A DNA stretch of 64,000 bases from Candidatus Aenigmatarchaeota archaeon (GCA_016177025.1 JACOWB010000008.1:14076-78075), one strand, 5' to 3'; positions 3,601 through 19,368 are shown, counted from the first letter of the stretch. Made by a program: numbers and translations. Notes: generated by a model from the letters alone, not told the origin.

Positions 3601-3750
3601 TTAACTAACGTATCCCTTTACTAATAATCGTCCCAACTCCGTCAATCGAACCTTTATCCTCCCTCGTTTTTCTTCAGTTTCAACCAGTCCCATCGTTTTC
3701 AATCCTTCCGACTTCATGTTTCCAACCGGAGCTATCATTGTGTATTTCAT
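3601..3750 (-). pseudogene. remnant (49 codons) of a paralog of the CARF-like/wHTH regulator at 18332-18982; N-terminal 10 aa fused to C-terminal ~37 aa
   Basis: Translation MKYTMIAPVGNMKSEGLKTMGLVETEEKRGRIKVRLTELGRLLVKGYVS matches the first 10 and last ~40 residues of the 216-aa protein. The adjacent 5' region is also conserved. Confidence 0.5.
3667..3707. repeat. 41-nt exact repeat shared with 18416-18456 (3' end of regulator gene copies)
   Basis: TTTTTCTTCAGTTTCAACCAGTCCCATCGTTTTCAATCCTT is identical at both loci; flanks are ~70-85% identical. Confidence 0.7.
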
Positions 3751-3835
3751 GATAAATTAAATGTTTCCTTATCTTTTAAATCTAATGTTTAATTGTTAAA
3801 TGCCACTTATATAGTGGCAAATTGTCTTCTTAATA
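3751..3835 (-). promoter_or_regulatory. conserved 5' region (TATA-like TTAAAAG plus AAGGA SD-like) shared with the promoter of the 18332-18982 gene
   Basis: About 85% identity over ~50 nt with 18983-19035. Contains TTAAAAGATAAGGA on the coding strand about 12-25 nt upstream of the ATG. Confidence 0.35.
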
Positions 3836-3839
3836 AAAG

Positions 3840-4574
3840 GTGAAAACGATTAAAGTAAGTTTCGATGTCTCCAAATCAACGGTTGCTTTGCTTGTGTTCG
3901 CACTAGGCATAGGATACTTATTAGGAAATGTATTCGGAGTGTCCAGTTTTACAGGAAAGACTACTGAAATTACAGCTATAACTCAGACACAGCCTACGCA
4001 ACAGCAACAACCGTCAAAAGTTCAAGTATCGATTGATGATGATCCTTCAATGGGCGAAAAGGATGCCAAAGTTATAGTTATAGAATTTTCTGATTTCCAA
4101 TGTCCGTTCTGTAGAAGATCCTACACAGATACAATATCTCAACTGAAGAAGGATTATATTGATACAGGGAAGGTGCTTTTTGTATACAGAGATTTCCCAT
4201 TAAGCTCCATACATCCTAGCGCATCATCTGCTGCCATGGCTGCCAACTGTGCGAATGAACAAGGCAAGTTCTGGGAAATGCACAACAAAATATTTGATGA
4301 ACAAAACAAGCAAGGGCAGGGAACAGTACAATTTTCTAGTGATGACTTGAAGAAATGGGCCGATGAGATTGGTTTAGACACTGATAAATTCAATTCTTGC
4401 TTAGACTCACAAAAATACAAAGATGAAGTTGATAAAGACTTTCAAGACGGTGTAACAGCTGGCGTCACAGGGACTCCGACATTCTATATAGGGAATCCAA
4501 AAGACGGATATACAGAAATCGTAGGTGCTCAACCGTATTCTGTTATCAGGCAAGTGATAGATTCAATGCTTTAA
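3840..4574 (+). CDS. DsbA-like thiol:disulfide oxidoreductase (thioredoxin fold), N-terminal signal anchor
   Basis: FQCPFCRR CxxC active site in DsbA-like context; hydrophobic N-terminal segment; GTG start. Confidence 0.7.
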   Translation: MKTIKVSFDVSKSTVALLVFALGIGYLLGNVFGVSSFTGKTTEITAITQTQPTQQQQPSKVQVSIDDDPSMGEKDAKVIVIEFSDFQCPFCRRSYTDTISQLKKDYIDTGKVLFVYRDFPLSSIHPSASSAAMAANCANEQGKFWEMHNKIFDEQNKQGQGTVQFSSDDLKKWADEIGLDTDKFNSCLDSQKYKDEVDKDFQDGVTAGVTGTPTFYIGNPKDGYTEIVGAQPYSVIRQVIDSML

Positions 4575-5143
4575 TGAACATTATGGGAAAAAGGAATGTA
4601 TTTGTACATAACTTGAAAGAAATAAAAGAGTCTGTAGTGCTCGTCTTTAGCAAACAGGTTTATATATTTTCCGCGATTTCAATTTCAGCTTTTCTTTTTT
4701 TCTTATTTATTTTCCTTACAAACATGCCACTCTTTCTCCAAGCATGGTCGGTGGGCGGATTTGCACTTTTTCCTAAAGTTTCGTTGAATATTATCAATAC
4801 TATCTTGTCTGTTTCGGGTAACTTGGCTTTAAGCCTGATGGTTGCTGTAGCTCTAGCCGGGGGAATTAACATTTCCATGATTGCTTTCAAGTTTCTGGCA
4901 ACAAGAAACAGAGAAATTAATTTGTTCAGCATAGGCGGCTTAATCGGGAGTGCATTCGGTGCAGGCTGTCCTGCCTGTTCAACCTCCTTACTTTCGATAT
5001 TAGGTGTTACGGGCGGTTTGTCAATTCTTCCCTTCAAAGGTATTGAGTTCACATTCAGCGGTTTGATAATTCTTCTTATTTCTTTATATTTTATAGCCAA
5101 GTCAATAAGTAATTGCGAAGAGTGCAAGATTAGAGCTAATTAG
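4574..5143 (+). CDS. polytopic membrane protein with intramembrane GAGCPAC motif and C-terminal CEEC; candidate redox partner of DsbA or metal permease
   Basis: About 5 predicted TM helices. GSAFGAGCPACSTSLLSILG lies in a hydrophobic segment; NCEECK is at the C-terminus. N-terminal domain of the 7581-9002 protein shares the same motif arrangement. Confidence 0.45.
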   Translation: MNIMGKRNVFVHNLKEIKESVVLVFSKQVYIFSAISISAFLFFLFIFLTNMPLFLQAWSVGGFALFPKVSLNIINTILSVSGNLALSLMVAVALAGGINISMIAFKFLATRNREINLFSIGGLIGSAFGAGCPACSTSLLSILGVTGGLSILPFKGIEFTFSGLIILLISLYFIAKSISNCEECKIRAN

Positions 5144-5196
5144 TTTGATTTAACTTAATCAAAAGATTTAAATAGTATATATGCCATAGATATCAT

Positions 5197-5508
5197 ATGA
5201 TAAAAACACCATATAAATTATTCTTCGGTACATTAAGCAATGAGATAAGATTAAAAATATTGCATGCATTAGCGGAAAAACCTAAAAACGTCACACAACT
5301 TACTAATGAACTCGGGTTTGACCAAACAACTGTGTCAAAGAACTTAAAGCGTTTGGCTACATGCCAATTTATTACAAACAAGAAAATAGGAAAACACAGC
5401 ATCTACTCTTTAAATAAGAAGACCATCTTGCCTTTGCTCAAGCTTATAGATAGACATGTTGATAAGTATTGTAAAAACTGCGAGTTGCTCCTGAATGAAA
5501 GAATATGA
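5197..5508 (+). CDS. ArsR/SmtB-family HTH transcriptional regulator (archaeal MerR-like position)
   Basis: ArsR HTH signature LKILHALAEKPKNVTQLTNELGFDQTTVSKNLKRL. Immediately upstream of and overlapping the merA-like gene. Confidence 0.75.
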   Translation: MIKTPYKLFFGTLSNEIRLKILHALAEKPKNVTQLTNELGFDQTTVSKNLKRLATCQFITNKKIGKHSIYSLNKKTILPLLKLIDRHVDKYCKNCELLLNERI

Positions 5509-6782
5509 TTTAATAATCTTGGGTCAAGGGTCAGCCGCATTTGCTGCAGCAATAAAAGCAAATGATTTAGGAATAAAAACAGCTATGGTTGGTGGCAATG
5601 CCACTTCCGGTGCGTTAATAGGTGGTACTTGTGTTAATGTTGGTTGCATGCCAAGCAAGAATCTAATCACAGTGGGGACCCTCTATTACCATGCGGTGAA
5701 TAATTCTTTCGAAGGGATTAAATATGGAAAAGGAAGACTCAATTTCAAGAAAGTTATCGAACAAAAGGATAGGCTTGTAAAGAAGTTTAGAAAAGAAAAA
5801 TATGCTGATGTTGTGAAAGGTTTGGAGAACGTGACTTATTTTGAAGGCAAAGGTAAGTTCATTTCTAAGGATGAAGTCGAAGTTGAAGGTAAAACACTAA
5901 AAGGAAAAAAGTTCTTGGTTGCTGTCGGTGCAATATCTAACATAATTCCTGTTCAAGGAATAGAAAAAATAGAGTACCTAACAAATGAAGAAGCTCTGAG
6001 TTTGAAGGAATTACCTAAATCAATGTGTGTCATTGGTGGCAGGGCTTTAGGACTGGAATTTGCACAAATGTATGCACACTTTGGAACTAAGGTAACAGTT
6101 TTGCAAAGAAGCGATAGAATTCTTCCAGAGGGGGAACCTGAAATTTCTGAAGCATTGAGAAAATACTTGGAAGAAGAAGGTATAATTATTTACACAGGGA
6201 CAGAGATTAACAGTGTAGATAAGAAAGGGAAAAATAAAACTGTTAATTTCACTGTTGGCAATGAAACAAAAGAAGCTGAATTTGAGCAAATTCTATTTGC
6301 AACTGGCAGAAAACCAAATACAGAAAATCTGGGATTAGAGAAAGTAGACGTGAAAACTGATGAAAAGGGTTTCATTATAGTGAATGATGAAATGCAAACA
6401 TCTGCACCAAGTATTTGGGCTGCCGGAGACGTCATTGGGGAACCTATGCTGGAAACTATTGCAGCGAAAGAAGGTGCTGTAGCAGTGGATAATGCTTTTA
6501 CGGAAAGCAAAAGGAAGATTAATTTTAATGAAGTTCCTTCTGCTGTATTTACCTATCCTGATAGTTGCAGACAATGATACAAAACAGATTGTGGGCGTTC
6601 ATATAGTAGCACCCCACGCAGCCGATCTTATACATGAAGGAACGCTAGCCGTTAAATTCAAGATGAAAATAGATGACATAATTGACACAGTCCATGTTTT
6701 TCCAACATTATCTGAAGCGATTAAATTAGCTGCACAGTCATTCTATAAGGATGTTAGCAGGCTGAGCTGTTGTACCGAGTGA
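5495..6782 (+). pseudogene. merA: mercuric reductase (MerA)-like pyridine nucleotide-disulfide oxidoreductase, disrupted by an internal deletion and a frameshift
   Basis: N-terminal FAD motif and redox-active GGTCVNVGCMPSK (CxxxxC). The dimerisation domain ([15 protein letters not shown]...[15 protein letters not shown]) continues in a second frame from ~6580. The C-terminus [11 protein letters not shown] carries the MerA-type vicinal Cys pair. About 45 aa of the interface domain is missing between TYPD and KQIVGV. Confidence 0.6.
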
Positions 6783-6894
6783 CATTTTTGGTTATAGTAG
6801 GTGATTATCTGTTTTTATCGTCGGTATTCGTAGAAGAATTTGCATCTTTACTCTTTTCCCAATAATTTAAATCTTAATTAACAATAGGATTGTT

Positions 6895-7566
6895 ATGGAA
6901 AAAGTTTCTTGTGATGTCTGCGGTAGAAAGTTCAAGACTAGTGAAGCCTTGACCCAACATAAAAATGATGCGCATAAACAGACTAGTGACGAAAAACAAC
7001 AAAGAAAAAAGAAGATATCAACAGGTAAGATACTTGCTTTTTTGATACCATCCTTGATTGTTTTAGGCATTGGATACGGGATTTATTGGGCTTTGTCAAC
7101 AGAAGGTGTGGGAACTATTGGGTCAACGCATATCCACGCTGACTTTGCTGTTTTTCTGGATAGTGAAGAAATTACCCCGCTTCCAGAGCAGTATTTTGTA
7201 GCTAGTCCGTATGTGCATGTCGAGACTGGAGCTGGAGCTGGTACTGTAATTCATATACATGCCACTGACGTACCTCTGAAGATGTTTTTCAACAGTCTCG
7301 GTATGAAGTTTAACTCAGAGTGTTTCGAAGCTGGTCAGGACAACAAATACTGTAATTACGGTGATACTACTCTGAAAATGTTTGTAAAGCATGCTAATAG
7401 TACATGGGAACAGAATTTCGAATATGAAAAATACATCTCCCAAGATTTGGATAAAATATTGATTACATACGGGAGCGACACGGACGAGGAGATTCAGCTA
7501 CAACAGAATAATGTAACAGATTTCTCAAAAGACAACTCTGGCAGAAGCATGGCTCTAAGAAGATAA
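6895..7566 (+). CDS. membrane protein: N-terminal C2H2/zinc-ribbon-like Cys2His2 element, one TM helix, extracytoplasmic His-rich domain (paralog family A)
   Basis: CDVCGRKFKTSEALTQHKNDAH; TM ILAFLIPSLIVLGIGYGIYWAL; then HIHADF...IHIHATD...KMFFNSLG...C...C, homologous to 10042-10551 and 14344-15015. Confidence 0.55.
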   Translation: MEKVSCDVCGRKFKTSEALTQHKNDAHKQTSDEKQQRKKKISTGKILAFLIPSLIVLGIGYGIYWALSTEGVGTIGSTHIHADFAVFLDSEEITPLPEQYFVASPYVHVETGAGAGTVIHIHATDVPLKMFFNSLGMKFNSECFEAGQDNKYCNYGDTTLKMFVKHANSTWEQNFEYEKYISQDLDKILITYGSDTDEEIQLQQNNVTDFSKDNSGRSMALRR

Positions 7567-7580
7567 ATTTAATAGCTCTA

Positions 7581-9002
7581 ATGGAGAAAGAATATATAAT
7601 GAAACGGAAATCCGGCATTCGAGAAATGGTATCGAACACATTTACCGTTGTAGCACGCAAAAATCTTGCGTTCTTTCTGATTTCATTAATAGCATTCACC
7701 CTTCTATATCTGTTCTTTTACGGTGTTTTCACAATCCCTGTCCTTGAGATAGGATTCTTCAAGGATGTCAAGCCTGGTGCATTTGATTACTTCTACATTT
7801 TCTCTTCGTCTTTATTGTCGGCATTGATAGTGACGTTGACAAAATATTCAATCACGAACAAAGTTCTTACCAGAGGAACATCCATTTTTGGCATATCTGC
7901 AGGTGTATTCGGTGCAATATGCCCTGTATGCTTGGGTGTGAATTTCCTAGTATTTGGTAGTTTTGTAACGCTTCCTCTGGTTTCATTGATTCCTTATTTA
8001 TTCTGGATACAGCTTGCTGGTCTCACGTTATTGACATTGGGCTTAGGGGCGACTATAAAAAATTCTTATGATAATATTTGCCTGGCATGCACAACTGAGA
8101 TTAAAGAAAAGAAAATCAAGACAAGTCTATTGGGTAGTACACTAAATCCTTTCCAAAGTTTTGTATTTTTTGCGTTATTGCTGTTGGCTATTTTTGCCTT
8201 GGGGTATCAGATTCTACCGCTGGTGTTGGGAGACGTATTTACTAGCACGGGTGCAGCAGTCGCTACAAATGGTCATGATAGTGATTTAGATTTAGAAACA
8301 GTAGTTTCGCAGGTTCTTCCTGAAGAAGGATTTACAATAGATGCTATATGGGAGGACTCTGTAAGCAAGATGGTGAAAGCTGGTACATTAGATATTGATA
8401 AATTGAACGACATATTGACAAAGCGGTATGGTCAACCATTGACAGAAGAACAGAAGAAACTATTGACATCGGATTATTCTAATGAAAAACTTACAATAAA
8501 CTCAAAGAATGCGGTTTTCATGATGTATGTTCTTTGGGCTCTAGCGAAAGACAATGACAACCAGATTCTGCATGACAGTCCGTTTGCACAGTATTTTGAA
8601 GATTATGATATAGGAGTTGGTAAGGCTGGTTATGGTGATACTAAATTAATTGACTTGACTCCCGAGCAGCAGGAGATTGCAAAATACGCTGCACTTAATT
8701 CCTACAGACCATGCTGCGGCAATCCTACAGGTCATCCCGATTGTTCGCACGGATTTTCTGCATTGGGGTTGATTGAATTGATGGCAGAACAAGGATATAC
8801 CAAAGAACAGATATTCGATGCTTTCGTGAAATTCAACTCATACTGGTTCCCGTCCACGTATATCCAAGATGCGCTATACTTTAAATTGGCAGAAAACAAA
8901 GATTGGAGTGATGTTGACAGAGAACTTGTTGCTGGAAAGCAGTATTCGTCCTTATCTGGCTCTTATGCGGTTAAGCAATACTTGCAAAATCTAGGAGTAT
9001 AG
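7581..9002 (+). CDS. large membrane protein: N-terminal domain with intramembrane GAICPVCLG and loop CLAC motifs; C-terminal soluble Cys-containing domain of unknown function
   Basis: About 6 TM helices in the first ~200 aa, paralogous to the 4574-5143 protein. C-terminal domain contains PCCGNPTGHPDCSHG. Confidence 0.5.
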   Translation: MEKEYIMKRKSGIREMVSNTFTVVARKNLAFFLISLIAFTLLYLFFYGVFTIPVLEIGFFKDVKPGAFDYFYIFSSSLLSALIVTLTKYSITNKVLTRGTSIFGISAGVFGAICPVCLGVNFLVFGSFVTLPLVSLIPYLFWIQLAGLTLLTLGLGATIKNSYDNICLACTTEIKEKKIKTSLLGSTLNPFQSFVFFALLLLAIFALGYQILPLVLGDVFTSTGAAVATNGHDSDLDLETVVSQVLPEEGFTIDAIWEDSVSKMVKAGTLDIDKLNDILTKRYGQPLTEEQKKLLTSDYSNEKLTINSKNAVFMMYVLWALAKDNDNQILHDSPFAQYFEDYDIGVGKAGYGDTKLIDLTPEQQEIAKYAALNSYRPCCGNPTGHPDCSHGFSALGLIELMAEQGYTKEQIFDAFVKFNSYWFPSTYIQDALYFKLAENKDWSDVDRELVAGKQYSSLSGSYAVKQYLQNLGV

Positions 9003-9012
9003 GAGGTTAAAA

Positions 9013-9204
9013 ATGAATACAAATGTCGTGTTGCTTGCGCTGATAGGCATACTGGTGTTGATGGCTGGAATACAGGCTTTCCAATTGACTACACTGTCAC
9101 AGGCTATCTCCGGCGGTACATTAATGTCCTCATCAGTGTCAGGTGCGGGATCTGGCGTACTATCGCAACTGTCGCAAGCTTCACAAGTCGGCGGATGCGG
9201 ATAG
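9013..9204 (+). CDS. small secreted/membrane-anchored Ser/Gly-rich peptide ending in GGCG
   Basis: 63 aa; hydrophobic N-terminus then S/G-rich tail with C-terminal ...VGGCG; AGGAGG RBS 8 nt upstream. Confidence 0.4.
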   Translation: MNTNVVLLALIGILVLMAGIQAFQLTTLSQAISGGTLMSSSVSGAGSGVLSQLSQASQVGGCG

Positions 9205-9232
9205 GTTTTCTTCTTTAATTGGAGATGAATAA

Positions 9233-10039
9233 TTGAGAAAACAAAAAAGGTCAGATAACAGATTATTCTGGAATATGTTTTTCGGACTTGTGGTAGTTCT
9301 GATAGTTCTGTACGGAGTGAACATTTTTATAACTGGCAATATAATCGGTCCTTTAAAAGATTCTGCTGAAAAGGAAAGACCGGCGAACTTGCATCTGGCT
9401 TTAATCACGAATGATTGTGACAACTGTTACGACATGAACAATGCTGCATCATTCATAAAAAGACAGACTACTGTGAAAGTAATTACGGAAAAAAATCTTA
9501 CATATGCCGATAAAGCGGCGCAAGAACTTGTATCTGCGAACAACATCAAAACGCTACCGGCTTTGGTGATTACAGGCGAGACTCTTCAAGATAATGTAAT
9601 GCCATTGTGGAATAGCATGGGTGCAGAATTTGTGGGCAATGTTGTCATTGTAAACGGCATACCACCTTATTACAGTTTAGACGCACAAAAAATCGTGGGA
9701 CTTGTACAAGTAACCAAATTGACAGATAACTCCTGTGCAGAATGCTACGATGTTGAAAACCATATGGCGATATTGCCGAGATTTGGCATCTACATAGACA
9801 AGTCAATACCTTATGATGTGTCCTCAGCCAACGGCAAGACTTTGGTACAGAAGTACAACATAACTAAAGTCCCTACGATAGTCCTTTCATCGGACGCTTC
9901 TGCATACACTTCGCTAAATAATGTATGGGGAGATGTGGGTACTGTTGAAAGCGACGGGCAGTATGTTTTCAGAGCTGTAGAACAGATGGGAACCTATAAA
10001 GATCTTGCTCGGAATAATGTAATCAATGCGACCAGATAA
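9233..10039 (+). CDS. membrane-anchored protein with two thioredoxin-like CxxC repeats
   Basis: N-terminal TM, then two ~110-aa repeats, each with a CxxC (NDCDNCYD and NSCAECYD) followed by a cis-Pro-like VPT/LPAL pattern typical of the Trx fold. Confidence 0.5.
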   Translation: MRKQKRSDNRLFWNMFFGLVVVLIVLYGVNIFITGNIIGPLKDSAEKERPANLHLALITNDCDNCYDMNNAASFIKRQTTVKVITEKNLTYADKAAQELVSANNIKTLPALVITGETLQDNVMPLWNSMGAEFVGNVVIVNGIPPYYSLDAQKIVGLVQVTKLTDNSCAECYDVENHMAILPRFGIYIDKSIPYDVSSANGKTLVQKYNITKVPTIVLSSDASAYTSLNNVWGDVGTVESDGQYVFRAVEQMGTYKDLARNNVINATR

Positions 10040-10041
10040 AA

Positions 10042-10551
10042 ATGAAAAAGTCAAAAAAAAATCAAAATCTAATTTTAGTTTTTATTATAGTCATTGCTAC
10101 TATCGGTTTGGGACTAGGTTTGTATTCTTTGCTTGCTGTTTCGAAAACTACCGGTTATGTCAGTTTACCTAATAAGCCGATACATTGGCATCCTCACCTT
10201 GAAATAATTATAAAGGGTGAAAAAGTTGTCATACCTACCAACATAGGAATTGGTACAAGTTATTCGGGTAGCCCATTCTACGATTCGATGATGGACATGA
10301 CTAACATGCATACTCATGATGACAGCGGCACATTACACTGGGAAGTTATGATGCATGCACCAACACGTGAAGACATGTACCTCGGTAATTTCTTCCAAGT
10401 CTGGGGAAAGACTTTTAATGAGAATTGCATTTTTGAATTTTGCAACGGTCCTGAAGGAAGTATGAAAGTGTCTGTAAATGGAAAAGAAAATAATGATTTT
10501 GAGAGTTATATTATCAGAGATGGAGATGAAATAGTAATAGAATTTAAGTGA
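10042..10551 (+). CDS. membrane-anchored extracytoplasmic His-rich domain protein (paralog family A)
   Basis: N-terminal TM; IHWHPHLEI...HTHDDSGTLHWE...LGNFFQVWG...C...C...SVNG; homologous to 6895-7566 and 14344-15015. Confidence 0.55.
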   Translation: MKKSKKNQNLILVFIIVIATIGLGLGLYSLLAVSKTTGYVSLPNKPIHWHPHLEIIIKGEKVVIPTNIGIGTSYSGSPFYDSMMDMTNMHTHDDSGTLHWEVMMHAPTREDMYLGNFFQVWGKTFNENCIFEFCNGPEGSMKVSVNGKENNDFESYIIRDGDEIVIEFK

Positions 10552-10556
10552 AGATA

Positions 10557-10694
10557 ATGGTAATAGACCCTGTTTGCAAGATGGAAATCCCCGAAGGAAA
10601 CATCAAAGCCCAAAATAAAGGAAAGACATACTATTTCTGCAGCAGCAACTGCCAAGCTGAATTCATGATATATCCGAATAAGTTTGTAAAATAA
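10557..10694 (+). CDS. YHS/TRASH-domain small metallochaperone (CopM-like), 45 aa; not in ORF track
   Basis: MVIDPVCKMEI...KTYYFCSSNCQAEF is a YHS/TRASH Cys pattern. It is closely similar to the N-terminal domain of the CopA immediately downstream, in the CopM-CopA arrangement known from Sulfolobus. Confidence 0.6.
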   Translation: MVIDPVCKMEIPEGNIKAQNKGKTYYFCSSNCQAEFMIYPNKFVK

Positions 10695-10703
10695 TATAAT
10701 TAT

Positions 10704-12776
10704 ATGACTGTAGATCCTGTCTGCGGAATGTATGTCGATGAAAAGAAAGCTATCTTCAAGAAGGATATCGACAGTAAGACTATTTATTTCTGTAGTGAAA
10801 ATTGCCTGAAAACTTATGAGTCCCGTGAAAAGGAATTCAAAAAATTAAGATTACTTGTTATCCTAAGCGGATTGATAGCTGTTCCTGTGGTTGCTTTGTC
10901 ATTCTTTTACAAACTCCCGTACAATAATTGGATTCTGCTTTTGCTCGCTACGCCAGTGCAGTTTGTTGCGGGCTGGAGGTTTTACAAAGGCATGTGGGAC
11001 GGGCTGAAAGCTAGAAGCGCGAATATGGACACGCTAATCGCAACCGGAACTTCTGCCGCATGGTTTTATAGTGTGTCGGTGGTTTTCTTCCCAGCAATCT
11101 TTACAGGAGAAACTTATTTTGACGCTTCTGTAATCATCATCGCACTTGTATTATTCGGAAAGCTTTTGGAAGAAATTGCCAAAGGGAAGGCATCCGAATC
11201 CATCAAAAAATTGATGGGATTGCAACCGAAAACTGCACGGATAATTAAAAACGGAAAGGAGGTTGAGATTCCTATCGAAAATGTTCAAATTAATGACATA
11301 ATTGTTGTCAGACCAGGAGAAAAGTTCCCTGTTGATGGCATTGTCGTTGAAGGGGAGTCCTCTGTTGATGAAAGCATGATTACTGGTGAATCGATGCCGG
11401 TGACAAAAAGGAAAGGTGATGAAGTCATTGGTGCGACTATAAATAAATCCGGATTGCTGAGATTCAAAGCCACTAAGGTCGGCAAGGATACTGTCCTGCA
11501 GCAGATAATTAAAGTTGTTCAGGAAGCGCAAACTGGCAAAGCACCTATACAGAGACTGGCTGACAAAGTTGCGTCTATCTTCACCCCGAGTGTTATCGCT
11601 GTTGCCATCTTATCGGGAATATTATGGTTCTTTCTGGGGCAGAATTTCATTTTTGCATTGACGATATTCATTACGGTTCTGATAATAGCATGCCCGTGTG
11701 CATTGGGAATAGCCACGCCAACCGCAATTCTGGTAGGTACAGGATTGGGAGCTCAGAATGGAATTTTAATCAAGGGTGGCGAAGCATTGGAAATCGCCAA
11801 GAAAATAAACACAATAATTTTTGACAAGACTGGAACACTGACGAAAGGCGAACCTTCTGTTACTGATGTTGTAAGACTAGGAAATGTGAAAGAGAACGAA
11901 GTTTTGAGATTGGCTGCCATTGCCGAAGTAGGCTCTGAACATCCTATCGGGGAAGCTATCGTTAAGAAAGCCATGGAAAGTAATCTGACACTGCCGAATG
12001 TAAAATCTTACCAGACTGTTTCTGGTAAAGGAATTAAAGTCACATATCTGAATAAAAGGATTCTGGTGGGCAACAGGACTTTCATGAAAGAGAATGGAAT
12101 TGTTATCACAGAGCTTGAAGGTGAGATACAAAAACTGGAAGATGAGGGGAAAACGACTGTGATTGTTGCTTATGGTGATAAAGTTATCGGATTGATTGGA
12201 GTTGCAGATACTCTTAAAGAGTTTTCGAAGGATGCTGTTCAACAGCTGAAGAAAATGGGGATTGGTGTCTGGATGATTACAGGGGATAATGAGAGAACTG
12301 CAAATTCTATTGCAAGTGACGTTGGCATTGATTATGTTATGGCGGGCGTCTTGCCTGAGGATAAAGCGAAGAAGGTGAAAGAACTGCAGGATAAAGGAAT
12401 GATAGTCTCCGCTGTTGGTGACGGAATTAATGATGCTCCCATGCTGGCACAGGCTGATTTGGGAATTGCGATAGGTTCTGGAACAGATGTTGCACTTGAG
12501 ACAGGTAAGATAGTTCTGATTAAGAATGATTTGAGAGATGTTGTTACTTCGATTGACTTGAGCAAGTATACTGTCAACAAGATAAAACAGAATCTTTTTT
12601 GGGCATTCTTTTACAATACTGTCGGGATACCGTTAGCTGCAGGAATATTATATCCATTCTTCGGATTGTTGCTTTCGCCGATAATTGCTGGTGCAGCCAT
12701 GGCATTTAGCTCATTTTCTGTAGTTGGAAATTCACTTTTAATGAGAATGTACAGACCAAGAATACAAACGAAATAA
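10704..12776 (+). CDS. copA: copper-translocating P1B-type ATPase with N-terminal YHS/TRASH metal-binding domain
   Basis: DPVCGMYVD...YFCSENC N-domain, TGES, CPC ([11 protein letters not shown]), [15 protein letters not shown] motifs; 8 TM topology. Confidence 0.9.
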
Positions 12777-12799
12777 CATTTAAAAGCAATAGTGATTGT

Positions 12800-13306
12800 A
12801 TGAAAACTCTATGGATAGCACTAGCAAGCATCCTTGCTTTAGTCACTTCTGCATATGCCCATATGGAAACATCTTCTGTCGAAGACATGATGGGTTCTAT
12901 GATGGCTGAGCAAAATGCTAGCGAGTTGGGACAATTAGATTGTAGCAAAATACCTGACAGTGAATTCGAAGAACTTGGCGACGCTACGATGGAAAGAATG
13001 GTAGGTGGTAGTGAATTACACGAGCAGATGGATACTATGATGGGTGGGGAAGGTTCTGCGAGTTTGACGCAAATGCATATTATAATGGGAAAGAACTGGT
13101 TGAGTTGCACGAGTCTCCAAGGCATGATGGGAAGCAATATGATGCCTATGATGATGAGAATGATGGGAAATTACTATCCATCTTATTACACAGGTTATAA
13201 TGCAGCTTTAATTTTTGCTATACTTGGTTGGGGATTGGCTGCTGTATTGATTGTGATTTTGGTTTTAATTCTCACGGGCAACATTAAAATTAAAAAAAGA
13301 AAATAA
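12800..13306 (+). CDS. secreted Met-rich protein with C-terminal membrane anchor; putative Cu(I)-binding
   Basis: Signal peptide ...SAYA/HM; multiple MMGSMM / MxxM / MMPMMMRMMG Mets motifs; C-terminal TM plus KKRK; adjacent to copA. Confidence 0.5.
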   Translation: MKTLWIALASILALVTSAYAHMETSSVEDMMGSMMAEQNASELGQLDCSKIPDSEFEELGDATMERMVGGSELHEQMDTMMGGEGSASLTQMHIIMGKNWLSCTSLQGMMGSNMMPMMMRMMGNYYPSYYTGYNAALIFAILGWGLAAVLIVILVLILTGNIKIKKRK

Positions 13307-13357
13307 CGGAAGGTAGGATATTAACTATCTTAATTCCGCTAGTTCACTTGAAAAACT

Positions 13358-13636
13358 CTAAGAAATATCACGATAAGTATCGTACATGAAAGTGCATTCT
13401 TTATTATGTTTCGCCAACAGCTTTTTCACACGATTAAAAATCGCATCAGATTTTATCTCCTTTCTACCCTTCGCCAACAGTTGTATATTCTCCATGATGT
13501 CTCTGGAAATTTTCTTTGCTATTTTTTCTTCCATCTCAGCACTTAAGCAGGCATTATAAACAGACTTGTACAGCTTCGCTCCACTGAATTTCTCCTTTTT
13601 ATTACTTCTTTTTACGACGTACATAACTTCACCCAA
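13358..13636 (-). CDS. stand-alone ATP-cone domain protein
   Basis: YVVKRSNKKEKFSGAKLYKSVYNAC...IAKKI matches the ATP-cone (VIKRDG..E.F...KI..AI) pattern; 92 aa. Confidence 0.45.
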   Translation of the reverse strand: MGEVMYVVKRSNKKEKFSGAKLYKSVYNACLSAEMEEKIAKKISRDIMENIQLLAKGRKEIKSDAIFNRVKKLLAKHNKECTFMYDTYRDIS

Positions 13637-14351
13637 AGTTTATCGTACCGTTCGCTATTAATATTAATAGCCAACTCAAACCGATTAAAAGCAATCCTGT
13701 AAACAATCGCATGTGTGCACGATATTTTTGTTTCCATATTTTTATGCTAGTTATTCTTGCACCAATTAAAAATATAATCAGAATTACAATTAAAGGTAAA
13801 ACAAAAATCAAATTATACAAAACTAATAAACTGAATGCGGTAAAGTCGAAATGTTGTGATAGAAGTAGAATGATGGCAAGATAAGGTCCGCCAGTGCATG
13901 GTAACTCGATAGCAGCTACGAAAGCACCGAGGAATAGTAAACTTGGAAATGTTATTTTTGTTGAATACTCGCTTATTTTCTTCGCCATACTAGGTGCGAT
14001 ACTTAAACTGAATCCTTTTCCATACCATAAGAAATCTTTTATTTCCACTAGTCCGGCTAATGTCAATACCGATGCAACAGCAACGCTAATATATGCGGCT
14101 ACGACAAGTGGAATTTGGCTAAGAAATGTCATCAGTCCCAAACCCGCTAAAAGATAAGTTGTAAAAACAGCGCCAATATAAGCCAGACCAAATATAAACA
14201 TCTTCCTCTTTGTCTGACGCATTATTAAAAATGTCGACAAAAGTAGAAGCAACACCCCGATAGCACAAGGATTGATAGAATCTACTAATGCAGTCGCCAT
14301 TACAATACCCAATGCAGGCAACCCGGCCTCTACAACCATATTATCACTCAA
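13629..14351 (-). CDS. ccdA: CcdA/DsbD-family transmembrane thiol-disulfide electron transporter
   Basis: Two conserved Cys in TM helices 1 and 4 (SINPCAIGVL and ELPCTGGPYL); ~6 TM; 240 aa. Confidence 0.7.
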   Translation of the reverse strand: MSDNMVVEAGLPALGIVMATALVDSINPCAIGVLLLLLSTFLIMRQTKRKMFIFGLAYIGAVFTTYLLAGLGLMTFLSQIPLVVAAYISVAVASVLTLAGLVEIKDFLWYGKGFSLSIAPSMAKKISEYSTKITFPSLLFLGAFVAAIELPCTGGPYLAIILLLSQHFDFTAFSLLVLYNLIFVLPLIVILIIFLIGARITSIKIWKQKYRAHMRLFTGLLLIGLSWLLILIANGTINFG

Positions 14352-15015
14352 AAACTATTTTTATGAAATCACCTGGTGGAACCTGTGAATAAGGTGAGAT
14401 GATGTAATCACGATAATTTCCCGTGTAAAGTTTATCATTTACAGACATTTCCACGCTTCCTTTCTTCCCATCAGGACAATAATCACCGTTTCCAACGTTT
14501 AGAATTTTCTCATTTGAGAAAGGAACATCGATTGCATCGAAAAAGTTACCGAGAGTGGCATCTTCTCTTTCTTTCATGACACCCTCCAAATGAATTCTAT
14601 AATCACCGTGATGATGAATTTCTTCTGTTCCAATTCTGTTTGCCAACCCTGTCGGTTCAGGTAAAACAACTTTTTGACCACATATCCAAATTTCAAAATC
14701 AGCATGCCAGTGTACCAATCCCTTACTCCAAGATGTTAATGACATGTACACAGTATTTCCAACAAGATACCCGGTAGATACAACAGCTGACACAACTATT
14801 ATCCCAAAAATAATTCTTTTTTGACTCTCCTTCAAACTATCTTTATAAGTTAACAACATTGTTGTTGATGCGAGTATAACAACAACTGTTAGAGCTAGTA
14901 CAGTTGTTGAACTAAATTGGTGAGTTAGACTTTCTGAAGCAGTTTCGTGTAGTTCTCCTGTATGAGCAAACGTAGCAGGCATCAGAAAGATAAACAATAC
15001 CAAGCTGGCAAGTCT
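14344..15015 (-). CDS. secreted/membrane-anchored His-rich domain protein (paralog family A); likely start at MRLASLVLF
   Basis: Signal peptide MRLASLVLFIFLMPATFAH; HWHADFEI...HHHGDYRIH...LGNFFDA...C...SVN...IKIVFE, homologous to 10042-10551. The track ORF extends to 15120 but overlaps the upstream small gene. Confidence 0.55.
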   Translation of the reverse strand, partial: RLASLVLFIFLMPATFAHTGELHETASESLTHQFSSTTVLALTVVVILASTTMLLTYKDSLKESQKRIIFGIIVVSAVVSTGYLVGNTVYMSLTSWSKGLVHWHADFEIWICGQKVVLPEPTGLANRIGTEEIHHHGDYRIHLEGVMKEREDATLGNFFDAIDVPFSNEKILNVGNGDYCPDGKKGSVEMSVNDKLYTGNYRDYIISPYSQVPPGDFIKIVFE

Positions 15016-15022
15016 CATGAAA

Positions 15023-15208
15023 TCAACAAACCTCACATATGTTAGCTTTCTTTTTCTTTCCCTTATGTTTTTCGTAATGTTGAACGCATTTTCCGCAACA
15101 AAATAATCGTTTATGAACATGGACTTTCTTTCTTAGATGAAGAGTCTTGCCACATTCATAACATTTCTCCAAGTTTGTTGCTTTCCACGAGAGAATTTTT
15201 TTAATCAT
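15023..15208 (-). CDS. small TRASH-like zinc-ribbon protein (Cys4/His-rich, Lys-rich tail)
   Basis: CYECGKTLHLRKKVHVHKRLFCCGKC has C-x2-C-x17-C-x3-C spacing, like TRASH/YHS metal-binding modules; 61 aa. Confidence 0.45.
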   Translation of the reverse strand: MIKKILSWKATNLEKCYECGKTLHLRKKVHVHKRLFCCGKCVQHYEKHKGKKKKANICEVC

Positions 15209-15218
15209 TTAATATTTA

Positions 15219-15548
15219 TTGGGTTTAATAGTAAATAAATTTGAAAATAGAAGAATTAACATGGCATTGGATAAAAGAACTGTCTTGAAAGAACTTGAGA
15301 AGGTGATGGATCCCGAATTAGGTGTGCCAATAACGGAAATGGAACTAGTGGACAAGATAGAAATAAAAGACGGGGAAGTTACTGTGGACTTTCACTTGAC
15401 AGCCCCCTATTGTCCTCCTATGCTTGCGATGAAGATGGCTTATGACATAAAGGAAATTGTCTCTCATATTCCTGAAGTGAAGTCTGTAAAGCTGAACATG
15501 AGCGGACATTATCTTTCTGCCGAGTTGAATAAGGAAGTTAATAAATAA
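15219..15548 (+). CDS. DUF59/MIP18-family Fe-S cluster assembly protein (SufT-like)
   Basis: VLKELEKVMDPELGVPITEMELV...VDFHLTAPYCP matches DUF59; the real start may be the internal MALDK at 15261. Confidence 0.65.
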   Translation: MGLIVNKFENRRINMALDKRTVLKELEKVMDPELGVPITEMELVDKIEIKDGEVTVDFHLTAPYCPPMLAMKMAYDIKEIVSHIPEVKSVKLNMSGHYLSAELNKEVNK

Positions 15549-15890
15549 TTTAAATAAGTTGTGTTGCATTAGATTGTTATGCCGAAAGGTACGATATATT
15601 TTTACGCAGATGGGAGAAACAGGTCGGGATTGTATGGGTATAATGTCCTAGGAACCATAGGAACCATCATAGCGTCTGATAGCGGATTAACTGGAAATGA
15701 ACTTTTAAGTGGCGAAAAGGTACGATAGTAATAATTATTCATGTAACTTCACAGGTATTCCCCACGGCTTACAGGAAGATCTCAAGAGACGGCTAAGGCG
15801 CTAATTAAACTATTTCTCTTCTCCTGTAGCAAACATTTCATACAAGTTAATTAAATAGTTGTCTGGCTATATTTTTTAAAGGTTTATTTA

Positions 15891-16466
15891 ATGGATTTAA
15901 GACAGATCGCAGTTGCAGCCGCAGTAGCCATCCTGTCAGCCGTGTTTGTCATTCTCCTGATTGATCTTTTGTATGAGGAACCGCAGTGGAATGATTACTG
16001 CAAAAATGACTACGGACCACGTGCCAAGCCTGTTCCTGCAGGCGTCGAACTCAAATGTGATTATGAATACGGCGAGGAAGAGCAGAAATGCATGGAAGAC
16101 GGGGGATTAATAAGAACCAAGTTGAATGAATCTGGATGCCCTGTATTTGATTATTGCGATCCTTGTAGCAAAGATTATGACGCGACTAGAAAGATATACA
16201 CTAGAAATGTTTTCATTATTGCTGGAGTGATTGGTGTAATTGCTATATTCGCCGGTACTTTATGGAAGATTGAATTCCTTGCAAGCGGATTGATGTTCGG
16301 CGGGTTGATTTTATTGTTCTATGCAACCGTCAGGTTTTTCGGAGATGCGGACAAGCTGTTGAGGGTAATAATTATTTTCGTCGAGCTTCTACTTGTCCTG
16401 TGGATAGGATATAAAAAGCTGTACAAAAGTGAAGGTAAGAAAGAAAAACGAAAGAAAAAATCTTAA
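15891..16466 (+). CDS. membrane protein with Cys-rich ectodomain, unknown function
   Basis: N-terminal TM, ~90-aa segment with 7 Cys (CKNDYG...CDYEYG...CMEDGG...CPVFDYCDPC), then 2-3 TM helices and a Lys-rich tail. Confidence 0.45.
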   Translation: MDLRQIAVAAAVAILSAVFVILLIDLLYEEPQWNDYCKNDYGPRAKPVPAGVELKCDYEYGEEEQKCMEDGGLIRTKLNESGCPVFDYCDPCSKDYDATRKIYTRNVFIIAGVIGVIAIFAGTLWKIEFLASGLMFGGLILLFYATVRFFGDADKLLRVIIIFVELLLVLWIGYKKLYKSEGKKEKRKKKS

Positions 16467-16822
16467 GATTTCCTTGCTAGCTGGTAGACAGCCTTGACTG
16501 CCACGATTACTGCAGCGGGTGCCACGAACGTTGAGATGTTAACCAAGATAGCACCTAAATAGTCGCCTACTCCCGGCAATATTCCATAGCCAGCTGAACC
16601 TGCTACAAGCAGAGCTACAGCTGCCAACAGGAATCCGTGCGACTCTTTTGAAGTAACGTTAACCAATCCTACAATAATTCCAAGAACTACGAGGACTGCC
16701 GTTACTGTCGTGGCTGCTAGTGCCTGTGGGAACAACCCAAGGACTATAGCTAGCAAAAGTCCGACTAGAAAAGCCCATTCTCCAACTCTGGGAGCTGAAG
16801 CGGCTTTACGTCTTGTTGCCAT
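16463..16822 (-). CDS. small Ala/Gly/Val-rich polytopic membrane protein
   Basis: 119 aa, 3-4 hydrophobic helices; coding statistics distinct from the antisense frame. Confidence 0.4.
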   Translation of the reverse strand: MATRRKAASAPRVGEWAFLVGLLLAIVLGLFPQALAATTVTAVLVVLGIIVGLVNVTSKESHGFLLAAVALLVAGSAGYGILPGVGDYLGAILVNISTFVAPAAVIVAVKAVYQLARKS

Positions 16823-16861
16823 ATAATATTATTTAAAGAACCTGTCTTTTAAAGGTATCTT

Positions 16862-17230
16862 TTGATTGGAGATAATATCTTTATAAATATGCGTTATCTT
16901 ATTTTAAATATGCCTACGTATAGTAAAAACGTTGGTGTAGCAAATCATGCCGTCACACGATATAGACAACGTGTGAATGATGGTAAAAAAGGTCTCACCC
17001 ACAAACAAATAGAGAGAAAAATTAAAGATGCCCTCAGCGATGTTAACCCATCCAGTTTACCTGAACTAAATGGTGGAGGTTATGCGGCTCCAGTTAGATT
17101 TAATACAAATAGGGGACATACTAGAAACTACTATTGTATCCTAAAACCTAGCTACAATAAAGATGAATGGTCTGTGGTGAGTTTGCTGACTGAAGATATG
17201 CTAGATGGCGATATACGAAATCTTATTTGA
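16862..17230 (+). CDS. hypothetical protein (weak resemblance to DUF4258/RelE-like fold: ANHAVTRYRQR)
   Basis: ORF only; start uncertain (several in-frame Met). Confidence 0.3.
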   Translation: MIGDNIFINMRYLILNMPTYSKNVGVANHAVTRYRQRVNDGKKGLTHKQIERKIKDALSDVNPSSLPELNGGGYAAPVRFNTNRGHTRNYYCILKPSYNKDEWSVVSLLTEDMLDGDIRNLI

Positions 17231-17495
17231 AAATATGGAACTCGTCGAATTCTTTTATAGGTTCCTCTTCTCTTACTTCAACCTTATCGACAATAGCCAA
17301 CAGAGGACCTTTCTTGCATTTTTCTACGAGTTCTGATATAGAATTCTCCTCTCCTTCGAAGAGAGCCTCTACAGTGCCGTCAAAATTGTTCTTCACCCAG
17401 CCTGTAATCCCCAGTTTATCTGCATTTTTCCTGACGAAATTCCTGAATCCCACATGCTGGACAATACCATGTATCCTGGCGTTTATTCTTTTCAT
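17223..17495 (-). CDS. acyP: acylphosphatase
   Basis: IHGIVQHVGFRNFV matches acylphosphatase signature 1 (VxGxVQGVxFR); 90 aa. Confidence 0.8.
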   Translation of the reverse strand: MKRINARIHGIVQHVGFRNFVRKNADKLGITGWVKNNFDGTVEALFEGEENSISELVEKCKKGPLLAIVDKVEVREEEPIKEFDEFHIFK

Positions 17496-17514
17496 ACTCC
17501 CACAGTTAATTGGT

Positions 17515-18348
17515 TTATTTTGACGGTAATTGCAAAAAATAACCCAAAATTATAAGAATGATACCAGCAACTGTCAAATAGCTTTCCTTTCTGAAATTAC
17601 TTCGTACCATTTCATTTAGATATTCATCTTTTAAAAACATGTGATCTGCGCCTTCAATGATTTTTAAATCCTTAGGTTCATTCGCATTCTCAAATAAAGC
17701 TTGTGCATTCTTTACTGGAACTATGTCATCATTGTCACCTTGGATTATTCTGACGGGTCGTTTAACATTCTTTATTATCTTGGTACCGTCGTATTCTTGA
17801 AGGTCTTCTATGAAAGAGTGATGTAATTTTATGTGCCCTCTTTTGTAGCTTTGATAATCTAGCGAACCTTCTTGTAGCCACTTCGTGATTGTATTTTCAT
17901 CAAACAAGTTCTGCCATTCTCTTTTAGCTGGTGCTGATATAGGGACTATTGCTTTAATTCTTTTGTCAGTTGTCGATGCAACTACAGCAGTAAGCCCACC
18001 AAGTGAATGGCCGGTTAATCCGATTTTATTTCTATCAACAAATTTCAAATCTTCTACAAAGTTCATAGCAGATATCGTATCGTTGACTTGATGGCTCAAC
18101 ATCATATCTTCGCATTTCCCTTCACTCTCACCGATGCAGTCAGAAAAATCAAATCTTAGAGCAACAAATCCATTTTCTACAAATGTCTTACCCAATTCAT
18201 GTAAAGGTTTGAACTCTTTGAATCCTGTGAACCCGTGACAAATCACAACCGCGGGTAGTTTACCGTCTGTATCAGGCTTATCTAAAATACCAGCAAGATT
18301 CAACCCTCTACTATTTTGAAAGGATACTTTTTCACTTGTCATCGGCAT
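17515..18348 (-). CDS. alpha/beta-fold hydrolase (dienelactone hydrolase/esterase-like)
   Basis: Nucleophile elbow GHSLGG; catalytic Asp/His candidates downstream (DNDDIV, GADHMF). Confidence 0.7.
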   Translation of the reverse strand: MPMTSEKVSFQNSRGLNLAGILDKPDTDGKLPAVVICHGFTGFKEFKPLHELGKTFVENGFVALRFDFSDCIGESEGKCEDMMLSHQVNDTISAMNFVEDLKFVDRNKIGLTGHSLGGLTAVVASTTDKRIKAIVPISAPAKREWQNLFDENTITKWLQEGSLDYQSYKRGHIKLHHSFIEDLQEYDGTKIIKNVKRPVRIIQGDNDDIVPVKNAQALFENANEPKDLKIIEGADHMFLKDEYLNEMVRSNFRKESYLTVAGIILIILGYFLQLPSK

Positions 18349-18982
18349 CGCTGGTCACATAACCTTTCACGAGCAACCTTCCCAATTCAGTCAACCTTAC
18401 TTTTATTCTTCCTCTTTTTTCTTCAGTTTCAACCAGTCCCATCGTTTTCAATCCTTCTGATTTTACATTTCCGTTTATGTGGTAAACTAACAGAGGCAGG
18501 CTCATCTTGACTCTCTTGCTCAGGTCTTCTAAAGAAGAACAGCAGTCGATCTCTTTTGATAAAGTTTTAAGTACCGACATCTTCTTATCTGACAAGAGTT
18601 TGTAATATGAAAATTTTAGGATGGGAAACATCATCACTTTATCATCCATTACATCTATAGCCTTCAATCCATTGACAAATGCTGCGCTAGTTGCCGCACA
18701 CATCATGTTCCTATCAGCAGCTGCTACATTTACTATAACTTTTTCTTTGTTAATTGCAGCAATATTAGAAATCACCTTGAAAGTTTCCTCCCACAGGTTT
18801 CCTTCTATTGTTACCGTGTCAACATCTATTCGAAATTTTGAGAAATCTTTTTTTATTTTTTCTACTTGATTTGATTTATCTTCCGTTGTTATGGCAACAA
18901 GCCTTTCTATTGGAAATTCATTAATTGAAGCGTATAGTGCATCTGGATTGTCGCCTATCGGAGCTATCATTGTGTATTTCAT
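18332..18982 (-). CDS. putative transcription regulator: N-terminal Rossmann-like (CARF-like) domain plus C-terminal winged helix (Csa3-like architecture)
   Basis: N-terminus MKYTMIAPIGDNPD then alternating beta/alpha pattern; C-terminus LKTMGLVETEEKRGRIKVRLTELGRLL is wHTH-like. A remnant paralog is at 3601-3750. Confidence 0.4.
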   Translation of the reverse strand: MKYTMIAPIGDNPDALYASINEFPIERLVAITTEDKSNQVEKIKKDFSKFRIDVDTVTIEGNLWEETFKVISNIAAINKEKVIVNVAAADRNMMCAATSAAFVNGLKAIDVMDDKVMMFPILKFSYYKLLSDKKMSVLKTLSKEIDCCSSLEDLSKRVKMSLPLLVYHINGNVKSEGLKTMGLVETEEKRGRIKVRLTELGRLLVKGYVTSDADDK

Positions 18983-19040
18983 GATAAACTAAACGTCTCC
19001 TTATCTTTTAAGGTTTATGTTTAACTGGTAAATGATAGTT
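18983..19040 (-). promoter_or_regulatory. promoter region of 18332-18982 gene (TATA-like TTAAAAG plus AAGGAG SD), conserved with 3751-3835
   Basis: Coding-strand TTAAAAGATAAGGAGACG lies 12-25 nt upstream of the ATG; paralogous copy upstream of the remnant. Confidence 0.35.
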
Positions 19041-19152
19041 TATTTTGATTGTTCCACTGAATTTCTTCACATGTTGAATAAGTAAAATCCAGTTTAAGCT
19101 TTAAACAGCATCATTATCCAATTCGTTCGATAAGATTATAGTGGGTGAGAAA

Positions 19153-19296: not shown

Positions 19297-19368
19297 ATGA
19301 AATCTAAAATGAAAACGACTAAGCAGAAGGAATCCTCTTGCATGTGTGGGGCTAATTGCTGTAGCTAA
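19297..19368 (+). CDS. Cys-rich micro-ORF (23 aa)
   Basis: MKSKMKTTKQKESSCMCGANCCS; tandem with the 19153 micro-ORF. Confidence 0.2.
   Translation: MKSKMKTTKQKESSCMCGANCCS

Follow-up and report, generated by a model that had tools for sequence, protein, structure and literature searches.

An in-frame remnant of a Csa3-like regulator gene in an Aenigmarchaeota thiol/metal neighbourhood: probable decay of a redundant paralogue by microhomology deletion

Introduction

The regulator gene described here has its closest known relatives in two places. In fold it is nearest to Csa3, a CARF plus winged-helix factor of the Sulfolobales (PDB 2wte, 6wxq, 6w11), and by sequence it belongs to the Pfam family PF19810, on which the sole literature that we found is a paper on HFX_2341, the DUF6293 protein of Haloferax mediterranei and a global transcriptional repressor of many genes (PMC11434293). 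Two genes of this kind occur in a stretch of 64,000 nucleotides (nt) from Candidatus Aenigmatarchaeota archaeon (GCA_016177025.1, JACOWB010000008.1:14076-78075; the whole stretch is called the window hereafter), both on the minus strand: an intact regulator gene of 216 amino acids (aa) at 18332-18982, called the right copy or B-type gene, and a 49-aa open reading frame (ORF) at 3601-3750, MKYTMIAPVGNMKSEGLKTMGLVETEEKRGRIKVRLTELGRLLVKGYVS, called the left copy. The modelled right copy has the same two-domain order as Csa3, although the sequence identity between the two is just 17-20% and the CARF-likeness of the right copy rests on fold similarity. HFX_2341 is a haloarchaeal protein of 308 aa, whereas the DPANN proteins are about 210-216 aa long; both fall in PF19810.

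Two known kinds of locus can be compared with this pair. One is the pseudogene formed by deletion between short direct repeats, through slippage or microhomology; the loss in the left copy likewise lies exactly between two repeats, of which one was retained, but unlike in the usual pseudogene of this type it is in frame and has left the native start, stop and promoter in place, and NCBI annotates the product as a hypothetical protein. The other is the genomic island with flanking repeats. About 15 kb of accessory-looking metal and redox genes lie between our same-strand copies, and a sequence-only reading of the window had taken the arrangement for an island boundary or an old duplication-deletion event. 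In contrast to islands, however, the repeats are diverged paralogous genes and not attachment (att) sites, neither an integrase nor a transfer RNA (tRNA) gene accompanies the block, its composition is native, and its cargo is syntenic in genomes without the left repeat. We judge it quite probable that the left copy is what remains of a redundant paralogue of a Csa3-like, redox-linked regulator, decayed by microhomology deletion in a vertically inherited thiol/metal neighbourhood. The case is a further example of known processes, namely pseudogenisation, conversion between paralogues and DPANN genome reduction.

Results and discussion

Two copies, one of them an in-frame fusion

A repeat search of the window joined the two copies by two families of direct repeats, 3608-3723 with 18357-18472 (116 nt, 80% identity) and 3717-3802 with 18949-19034 (86 nt, 85%), the second of which extends ~50 nt 5' of the ATG. 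When the 216-aa protein was compared with the whole window by tblastn, its residues 171-210 matched 3723-3604 (95% identity, E = 4e-19) and its residues 1-11 matched 3750-3718, and there was no credible match besides the left ORF and the gene itself. The similarity is far above chance, and the left ORF joins the N- and C-terminal ends in frame. Most of what the sequence-only reading had said of the copies is borne out: they lie on the same strand and share the promoter, the first 10 codons and the last ~37 (here ~38) codons, the right copy is intact and the left one is the fusion, and the nucleotide alignment of both repeat regions that it had proposed excludes an unrelated small ORF. The exact cores exist as well, each one base longer than the 41 and 29 nt then given, with 42 nt at 3667-3708 = 18416-18457 and 30 nt at 3727-3756 = 18959-18988. 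We also looked for a remnant of dsbA 5' of the right copy and found none, the homology ending ~50 nt upstream of the ATG.

A single gap between 8-bp repeats

The reference for the left copy is L008 (CAZMWU010000049.1), a contig of a related metagenome-assembled genome (MAG); the close relatives were all drawn from NCBI, ENA or Logan assemblies. L008 has the order Lhr, tmk, NUDIX (-), a full-length 210-aa regulator (-) and then dsbA (+), and the genes flanking the regulator are 79-93% identical at the amino-acid level to their counterparts in the window. The two sequences are collinear at 85-92% nucleotide identity with one single gap of exactly 483 nt (161 codons). The 8-nt repeat TGGAAACA stands at both ends of this gap in L008 (579-586 and 1062-1069), 483 nt apart; the gap edges read GTTGGAAACAA at 580 and AATGGAAACAT at 1063, and the junction in the window reads GTTGGAAACATG, with one copy of TGGAAACA at 3717-3724 (-) where L008 has two. 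An intact collinear orthologue, one gap, a repeat at both ends and one copy kept are the marks of a microhomology-mediated deletion, and all of them are present here.

What is left of the A-type gene (DUF6293/HFX_2341, Csa3-like) at 3601-3750 (-) is codons 1-10 followed by the last ~38 codons, and this piece carries states specific to the L008 lineage: APVGN, GNMKSEG, the end at GYVS* and a NUDIX start 3 nt further on. At the nucleotide level the 5' segment is 96.2% identical to L008 and 86.1% to the right copy, the 3' segment 92.7% and 76.4%, respectively, and 35 informative sites join the remnant to L008 as against 7 that join it to the right copy. Because the collinearity, the shared lineage states and the higher identity to L008 all point the same way, the left element is taken to be the decayed orthologue of the L008 regulator gene by all three comparisons and not a partial duplicate made at an island boundary.

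Placed on the AlphaFold (AF2) map of the intact paralogue, the remnant holds residues equivalent to 1-10 and ~171-209 of the 216-aa protein, that is, strand beta1, a loop, the wing hairpin and the C-terminal helix, and all three helices of the helix-turn-helix (HTH) are gone. The 49-aa ORF has no Pfam match, and the N-domain and HTH helices are not present in it. By this model, a product without the HTH could not be a DNA-binding regulator of the Csa3-like type. An identical NCBI record of the ORF, on a 119.6-kb contig, exists as a hypothetical protein of a Candidatus Aenigmarchaeota MAG, an annotation to be corrected, on our reading, to pseudogene remnant. A protein search with the ORF among 5.8 billion clusters returned just its own record, the word index being insensitive for so short a query, and a scan of JGI metagenomes with the full-length A-type protein of L008 (P0008) found no relative. 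Look-ups by exact sequence with proteins of the window gave no record.

The NUDIX hydrolase gene (3145-3597, -) starts 3 nt after the stop of the remnant, with the same junction in L008, and the two are probably transcribed together from the regulator promoter. As a side observation, identity at four-fold sites between the window and L008 (2502-4302) falls from 86% in the 5' part of dsbA to 70% in NUDIX and 49% in tmk, a gradient across 2 kb that points to a recombination breakpoint or to a recent exchange between lineages that involved the dsbA-regulator segment.

Probable traces of conversion between paralogues

A neighbour-joining tree of close homologues groups the right copy with seven orthologues in a clade that leaves P0008 outside. 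Members of this clade are 81-90% identical to each other and 76-80% identical to P0008; the right copy belongs to another sub-lineage (B-type) of the family than the left copy (A-type). Between the two copies in the window, 16 of 20 codons beyond the 42-nt core carry synonymous differences while the amino acids are unchanged, so the copies have evolved separately for a long time under purifying selection and are not the product of a recent duplication. A duplication within the window genome, followed by deletion, would account for two genes on the same strand, 15 kb apart, with similar promoters and exact cores of 42 and 30 nt; yet the left copy is far nearer to the L008 gene than to the right copy, the tree sets the L008 protein apart, the synonymous differences are many and the promoter likeness is family-wide (see below), and we regard such a recent origin as very unlikely. 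The "old duplication-deletion event" of the sequence-only reading holds insofar as the left copy is a deletion derivative of a full-length gene and the copies are paralogous, and fails insofar as they would be recent duplicates, the left one being 93-96% identical to L008 and 76-86% to the right copy.

The exact cores have a better explanation in short conversion patches, together with conservation of the 5' end. An 89-nt tract of the right copy, 18531-18619 (-; gene nt 364-452), shares 95.5% identity with the A-type gene of L008, compared with 78% gene-wide, and over the same region the B-type orthologues reach 72-82% identity to the right copy in 90-nt windows. Only 2 of 2000 codon-position-preserving permutations reach 95.5% in the tract. 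In addition, the remnant agrees with the right copy, and not with L008, at four clustered sites within the 42-nt core. An identity that exceeds both the gene-wide value and that of the orthologues is what ectopic gene conversion between paralogues leaves behind, and the 89-nt patch is a probable conversion tract between A-type and B-type genes. If so, full-length paralogues of both types coexisted in this lineage before the deletion. The right copy is mosaic at its other end too: gene nt 1-210 (18772-18982) are 88-96% identical at the nucleotide level to the gene of L020 (P0002) and the later segments ~75%, so that the 5' third and the remainder form a second recombination mosaic inside one 650-bp gene.

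A largely inherited neighbourhood around the copies

The left edge of the block keeps its gene order in relatives, with an intact single regulator in L008 or with none. Three NCBI MAG contigs (L015-L017) have Lhr-279aa-tmk-NUDIX|dsbA with 64 nt between NUDIX and dsbA and no regulator there, L102 has tmk-NUDIX|dsbA with a 50-nt spacer and again no regulator, and L019 has tmk->dsbA->194aa->x189->C2H2, also regulator-free, with the order of the window kept as far as C2H2. L015-L017 further carry counterparts of 6895-13306 of the window, with C2H2, the 467-aa membrane protein, the 63-aa protein, Trx-like, His-rich and CopA genes in window order at mostly 62-79% amino-acid identity (44% for the His-rich protein); they also have the Met/His-rich gene, but out of this order, and in L015 it lies ~2.8 kb past CopA with five unrelated genes between. 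DsbA is 74-88% identical across at least five related lineages with the tmk-NUDIX|dsbA-cargo junction. At the other end, L013 has regulator->hydrolase->acyP->g16463->g15891->FeS-assembly in window order, which makes 15219-18982 of the window syntenic, and the regulator->hydrolase pair recurs in L021 and L001.

The sequence-only reading had proposed to check the composition of the block and had allowed that related genomes with the same gene order and no remnant would speak against one. Both observations go against the island: at the left edge the relatives have that order without the remnant, and the composition is native, since in tetranucleotide usage 3.6-19 kb correlates at 0.965 with the remainder of the window (other 15-kb blocks: 0.94-0.98) and the GC content is 0.36-0.41 against 0.398 overall. 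Pfam scans of 30 ORFs of 1-23 kb gave no integrase, recombinase, transposase, phage or other mobility family, a PHROG scan of 10 ORFs of the interval, mostly those without a Pfam match, gave no mobility or phage family, and there was no tRNA near the block edges, the nearest calls lying at 56.7 kb. No empty site, with the flanks joined without the block, was seen in the left-edge comparison (L015-L017, L102, L019), and instead of near-identical att repeats or a split target we found repeats that are 76-86% identical. At least the left two-thirds of the 15 kb is inherited chromosome and not an inserted island, and at least the left 9.5 kb, with the 3.8-kb stretch at the right end, belongs to the ancestral thiol/metal-redox neighbourhood of the regulator family. 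The block is not a mobile island.

There is one form of the island idea that the topology of the locus would fit. A circular element with the order regulator-promoter-dsbA...cargo...acyP-hydrolase may have entered a chromosomal regulator gene by NUDIX through a single (Campbell-type) crossover, leaving the island bracketed by two direct hybrid copies, one later deleted, through which it could also be excised. NUDIX and dsbA do meet at the left copy, and the hydrolase meets the small Cys ORF and aldh side at the right one, L001 shows the "circle-junction" arrangement DsbA|regulator->hydrolase, and the regulator genes are demonstrably recombinogenic and mosaic. However, the tmk-NUDIX|dsbA-cargo junction is found in at least five related lineages, mostly regulator-free, so that any such integration must be ancient, and throughout the clade the block is now part of the chromosome; in addition, the composition is native, mobility genes, tRNA and att-like exact repeats are missing from the block, and the copies share just 76-86% over ~200 nt. 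As a recent event, Campbell integration is rejected because the synteny extends across the clade and neither mobility genes nor a deviant composition mark the block, and as a whole we find this origin quite unlikely. Under vertical inheritance with local decay, which we prefer, the intact gene in L008, the in-frame remnant in the window and the empty site in the other relatives would form a three-state series for the loss of a redundant regulator in reduced DPANN genomes, a series accompanied by direct evidence for two processes, microhomology deletion and conversion between paralogous genes.

Shared promoters and the fate of the remnant

The 89-bp bidirectional promoter region between the remnant and dsbA (3751-3839) is the best-conserved stretch of the left locus, 96% identical to L008. 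It contains a TATA box for the remnant and NUDIX at ~3773-3780, 30 nt before the ATG, a putative palindromic operator TTTAACAATTAAACA at 3786-3800, and a second, TATA-containing palindrome GCCACTTATATAGTGGC at 3803-3819, ~25 nt before the start codon of dsbA. The promoter region of the right copy (18983-19110) has its TATA box at ~19005-19012 and the operator TTTACCAGTTAAACA at 19018-19032, and a further operator-like palindrome lies at 19091-19107, before a small Cys-rich ORF. The orthologues have the same layout, a palindrome tGTTTAA-N3-TTAAACa directly 5' of the TATA box TTTAAAAG, which itself lies ~30 nt before the ATG; this TATA-ATG spacing suggests that the regulator transcript is leaderless. 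In 38 of 81 family loci the 100 nt before the regulator include a strict TTTAA-N3-TTAAA, compared with 1.7% of random 100-nt windows from the same loci, and the pattern TTTAANNNTTAAACA, with one mismatch allowed, has 8 matches in the window against 1.35 expected, including both regulator promoters and 19091-19107. Because this layout is family-wide, the likeness of the two promoters reflects a conserved operator and TATA box and is no sign of a recent duplication. The operator is probably autoregulatory.

From these observations the following course of events can be proposed. An Aenigmarchaeota (DPANN) genome once held two full-length paralogues, with the A-type gene at its inherited position between NUDIX and dsbA. 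The A copy was inactivated by a 483-bp in-frame deletion between the 8-bp repeats TGGAAACA, of the replication-slippage or microhomology type, which took all three HTH helices and, apart from strand beta1, the whole CARF-like domain, and left promoter, operator, start and stop. The intact B copy, in its order regulator->hydrolase->acyP, would have made the A copy redundant and thereby allowed its decay, and presumably acts in trans on the palindromic operator kept at both loci. Promoter and remnant would have persisted by constraint, because the 89-bp region also drives the divergent dsbA operon and because NUDIX, with its start 3 nt past the remnant stop, depends on the promoter.

Several points weigh against this account. 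All four substitutions unique to the remnant lineage are synonymous, unlike in a long-dead pseudogene; either the deletion is recent relative to the split from L008, which is probably the case, or the peptide is still constrained. The deletion is known from one assembly, and an independent contig, L018, which is 100% identical, stops at 3804, short of the remnant. Among the relatives found, no contig spans both copies, and the coexistence of A and B and the right edge on the aldh side are seen only in the window. Finally, the regulator at NUDIX|dsbA is either ancestral, with a loss in L015, L102 and L019, or arrived as a copy in the ancestor that the window shares with L008. The spacers of L015, L102 and L019 have promoters too different to polarise gain and loss; the similar spacing and a palindromic element shared with the dsbA|regulator spacer of L001 favour ancestry.

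The first of these points could also mean that the 49-aa ORF is a functional micro-protein, either modulating the intact paralogue, for example through non-productive heterodimers, or serving as a translated leader of NUDIX. The loss is in frame, the last 37 residues agree with the right copy at 36 positions in spite of ~18 synonymous differences, the native promoter, start, frame and stop are kept in a locus whose promoter/operator is its best-conserved part, and NUDIX begins directly after the stop. On the other hand, an in-frame outcome has a chance of 1 in 3 and a recent deletion explains the synonymous-only pattern equally well, no other fused form occurs among the clusters searched besides the identical NCBI record, the gene is wholly missing at the same site in five relatives, and without the HTH helices and nearly all of the CARF-like domain the peptide is predicted to be unlikely to fold independently. 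We therefore hold a function of the peptide to be improbable, and a little less probable still the specific version in which the remnant is expressed as a peptide of beta1, wing and C-terminal helix that titrates or modifies the paralogue or, as a leader, couples NUDIX to a redox-responsive operator; if true, a single slippage deletion would have made a dominant-negative or leader peptide out of an archaeal regulator paralogue. As to the second point, the source is a MAG, and the L018 contig, which comes from another sample, ends inside the promoter, which could reflect a branch in the assembly graph; the missing 483 nt might then be an assembly artefact or a chimera of mixed strains. However, the loss is a clean in-frame one between 8-bp repeats with collinear flanks at ordinary divergence, such as assemblers rarely create, and a gene pair only 78% identical would not collapse in assembly, which makes an artefact hardly credible compared with a real deletion in the A-type gene.

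A CARF-like regulator next to thiol-redox genes

With 35.1 bits against a gathering score of 30 (E = 2e-8), residues 6-109 of the right copy match PF19810 (HFX_2341_N). It has 609 homologues, and the NCBI name for homologues is "DUF6293 family protein"; most of the named ones come from MAGs of Aenigmarchaeota, Woesearchaeota, Nanoarchaeota and other DPANN archaea, at 50-90% identity. The AF2 model, built on 42 sequences (pLDDT, the predicted local distance difference test score, 83.6), has a Rossmann-like N-domain (residues 1-117) and a C-terminal winged HTH with helices at 131-142, 150-156 and 161-169, a wing at 183-196 and a last helix at 198-207. Its best PDB match is Csa3 over the full length (Foldseek E = 2e-10, probability 1.0), followed by other CARF proteins. 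A sequence search of the PDB gave a marginal CARF match only (8bao, E = 0.035), and the family was placed by the fold search. Cys94, Cys146 and Cys147 are invariant in the 42-sequence alignment.

Unlike the CRISPR-associated Csa3, the DPANN family members adjoin thiol-redox genes and not CRISPR loci, and no cas gene was found among the ORFs of 1-23 kb of the window scanned against Pfam. The association with thiol-redox genes is one of gene neighbourhood alone: the divergent partner of the regulator is dsbA with a Cys-containing membrane protein in L001, L006, L008 and the left locus of the window, and AhpC/Redoxin-DUF3179-DsbD in L005, L020 and L021, so that one or the other diverges from the regulator in every close relative looked at. 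Across loci L001-L101, of which those from diverse metagenomes have a regulator 50-65% identical to the window protein, the gene transcribed away from the regulator usually codes for AhpC, DsbA, glutaredoxin or rubrerythrin. JGI metagenome loci gave 53 immediate upstream neighbours, and these include 9 AhpC/Redoxin-DUF3179, 6 glutaredoxin, 3 rubrerythrin and 1 disulfide oxidoreductase genes. Judged by these neighbours, the protein is most likely a repressor or activator of thiol/oxidative-stress genes that acts at the palindrome, with either the redox state or a CARF ligand as its signal, and the DPANN family may use a CARF scaffold for redox regulation outside the CRISPR context. A Csa3-like CARF and winged-HTH family that is widespread in DPANN archaea and combines redox neighbours, a palindrome and three invariant Cys residues suggests an experimentally testable regulator of thiol or oxidative stress. 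We see this family-level link with thiol-redox genes as a more interesting lead than the structural finding at the left locus itself.

A candidate member of the regulon lies near the right copy. A 27-aa CxxC...CC ORF (MTKFVCSSCGNTSSKQASCCGTSMKRQ, 19154-19236, +) is divergent from it, and the ORF, its upstream palindrome and a downstream element are conserved in L005 and L006, where the ORF is absent from the listed gene calls; it may encode a 4-Cys zinc-ribbon or metal-binding peptide controlled by the regulator. A second tiny Cys-rich ORF (MKSKMKTTKQKESSCMCGANCCS, 19297-19368, +) is likewise divergent from the right copy. Further away, an operator-like site TTAAACTGTTAAACA with one mismatch at 38086-38100 lies 5' of an ORF at 38143-38409, whose product is homologous to the 107-aa protein encoded after regulator->hydrolase in L001, and the window has homologues of the Grx and TrxR genes of the L001 operon at ~29.4-30.8 kb. 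These genes and the 38-kb ORF may be dispersed members of the regulon.

Genes between the copies and further features

The thiol/metal character that the sequence-only reading had given the interval is confirmed by Pfam, with DsbA, a truncated Pyr_redox_2, a Trx-like protein, a P-type ATPase and two His-rich paralogues, while the accessory or island status is not; ArsR, a YHS domain with the P-type ATPase and an SfLAP/DsbD-like membrane protein complete the Pfam content. At its left end, dsbA and a 189-aa membrane Cys protein (3840-5143, +) are divergent from the regulator, as they are in L001, L006 and L008. Then follow an ArsR-family gene and a pseudogene of a pyridine-nucleotide disulfide oxidoreductase (5197-6782, +), identified by Pfam and by comparison with L006. 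The latter (merA- or DLD-like, 5495-6782, +) is a second decaying gene nearby: it lacks residues 357-396 of the 471-aa L006 orthologue, and its C-terminal dimerisation part runs on in another frame.

The metal/thiol block proper (6895-13306, +) consists of the C2H2 membrane protein, a 473-aa membrane protein, the 63-aa protein and the Trx-like, His-rich, YHS mini, YHS-CopA and Met/His-rich genes. The YHS-like mini-protein, a stand-alone 48-aa Cys protein (10548-10694, +), is encoded directly 5' of the CopA-type P-type ATPase (10704-12776, +), which itself opens with a YHS domain. His-/Met-rich membrane-anchored proteins are encoded at 10042-10551, 12800-13306 and 14344-15120, the first and third being paralogues with 30% identity.

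The rest of the interval (13358-17495) holds an ATP-cone gene, the SfLAP/DsbD-like gene, the His-rich paralogue, DUF59/FeS-assembly and membrane protein genes, and acyP. Stand-alone ATP-cone proteins of 85-92 aa, without a catalytic or NrdR zinc-ribbon domain, are encoded at 13358-13636 (-) and again at 21313-21570 (-). A 122-aa ORF at 16862-17230 (+) has no Pfam or PHROG match and no counterpart in the otherwise syntenic L013 or in L005, and may be a small lineage-specific insertion between g16463 and acyP. The acyP gene itself (17223-17495, -) lies within the block, downstream of the right copy, and is not a neighbour beyond it, as had been supposed; an ORF at 17227-17523 (+) was rejected as a gene, being the antisense shadow of acyP. 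The alpha/beta hydrolase gene (17515-18348, -) shares 17 nt with the 3' end of the right regulator gene and is its conserved operon partner (L001, L013, L021). Far outside the block, ARAGORN called two adjacent 88-nt tRNA-like genes at 56711-56798 and 56833-56920 (+) as "tRNA-???" with undefined two-base anticodons, and these may be intron-containing or otherwise atypical archaeal tRNAs.

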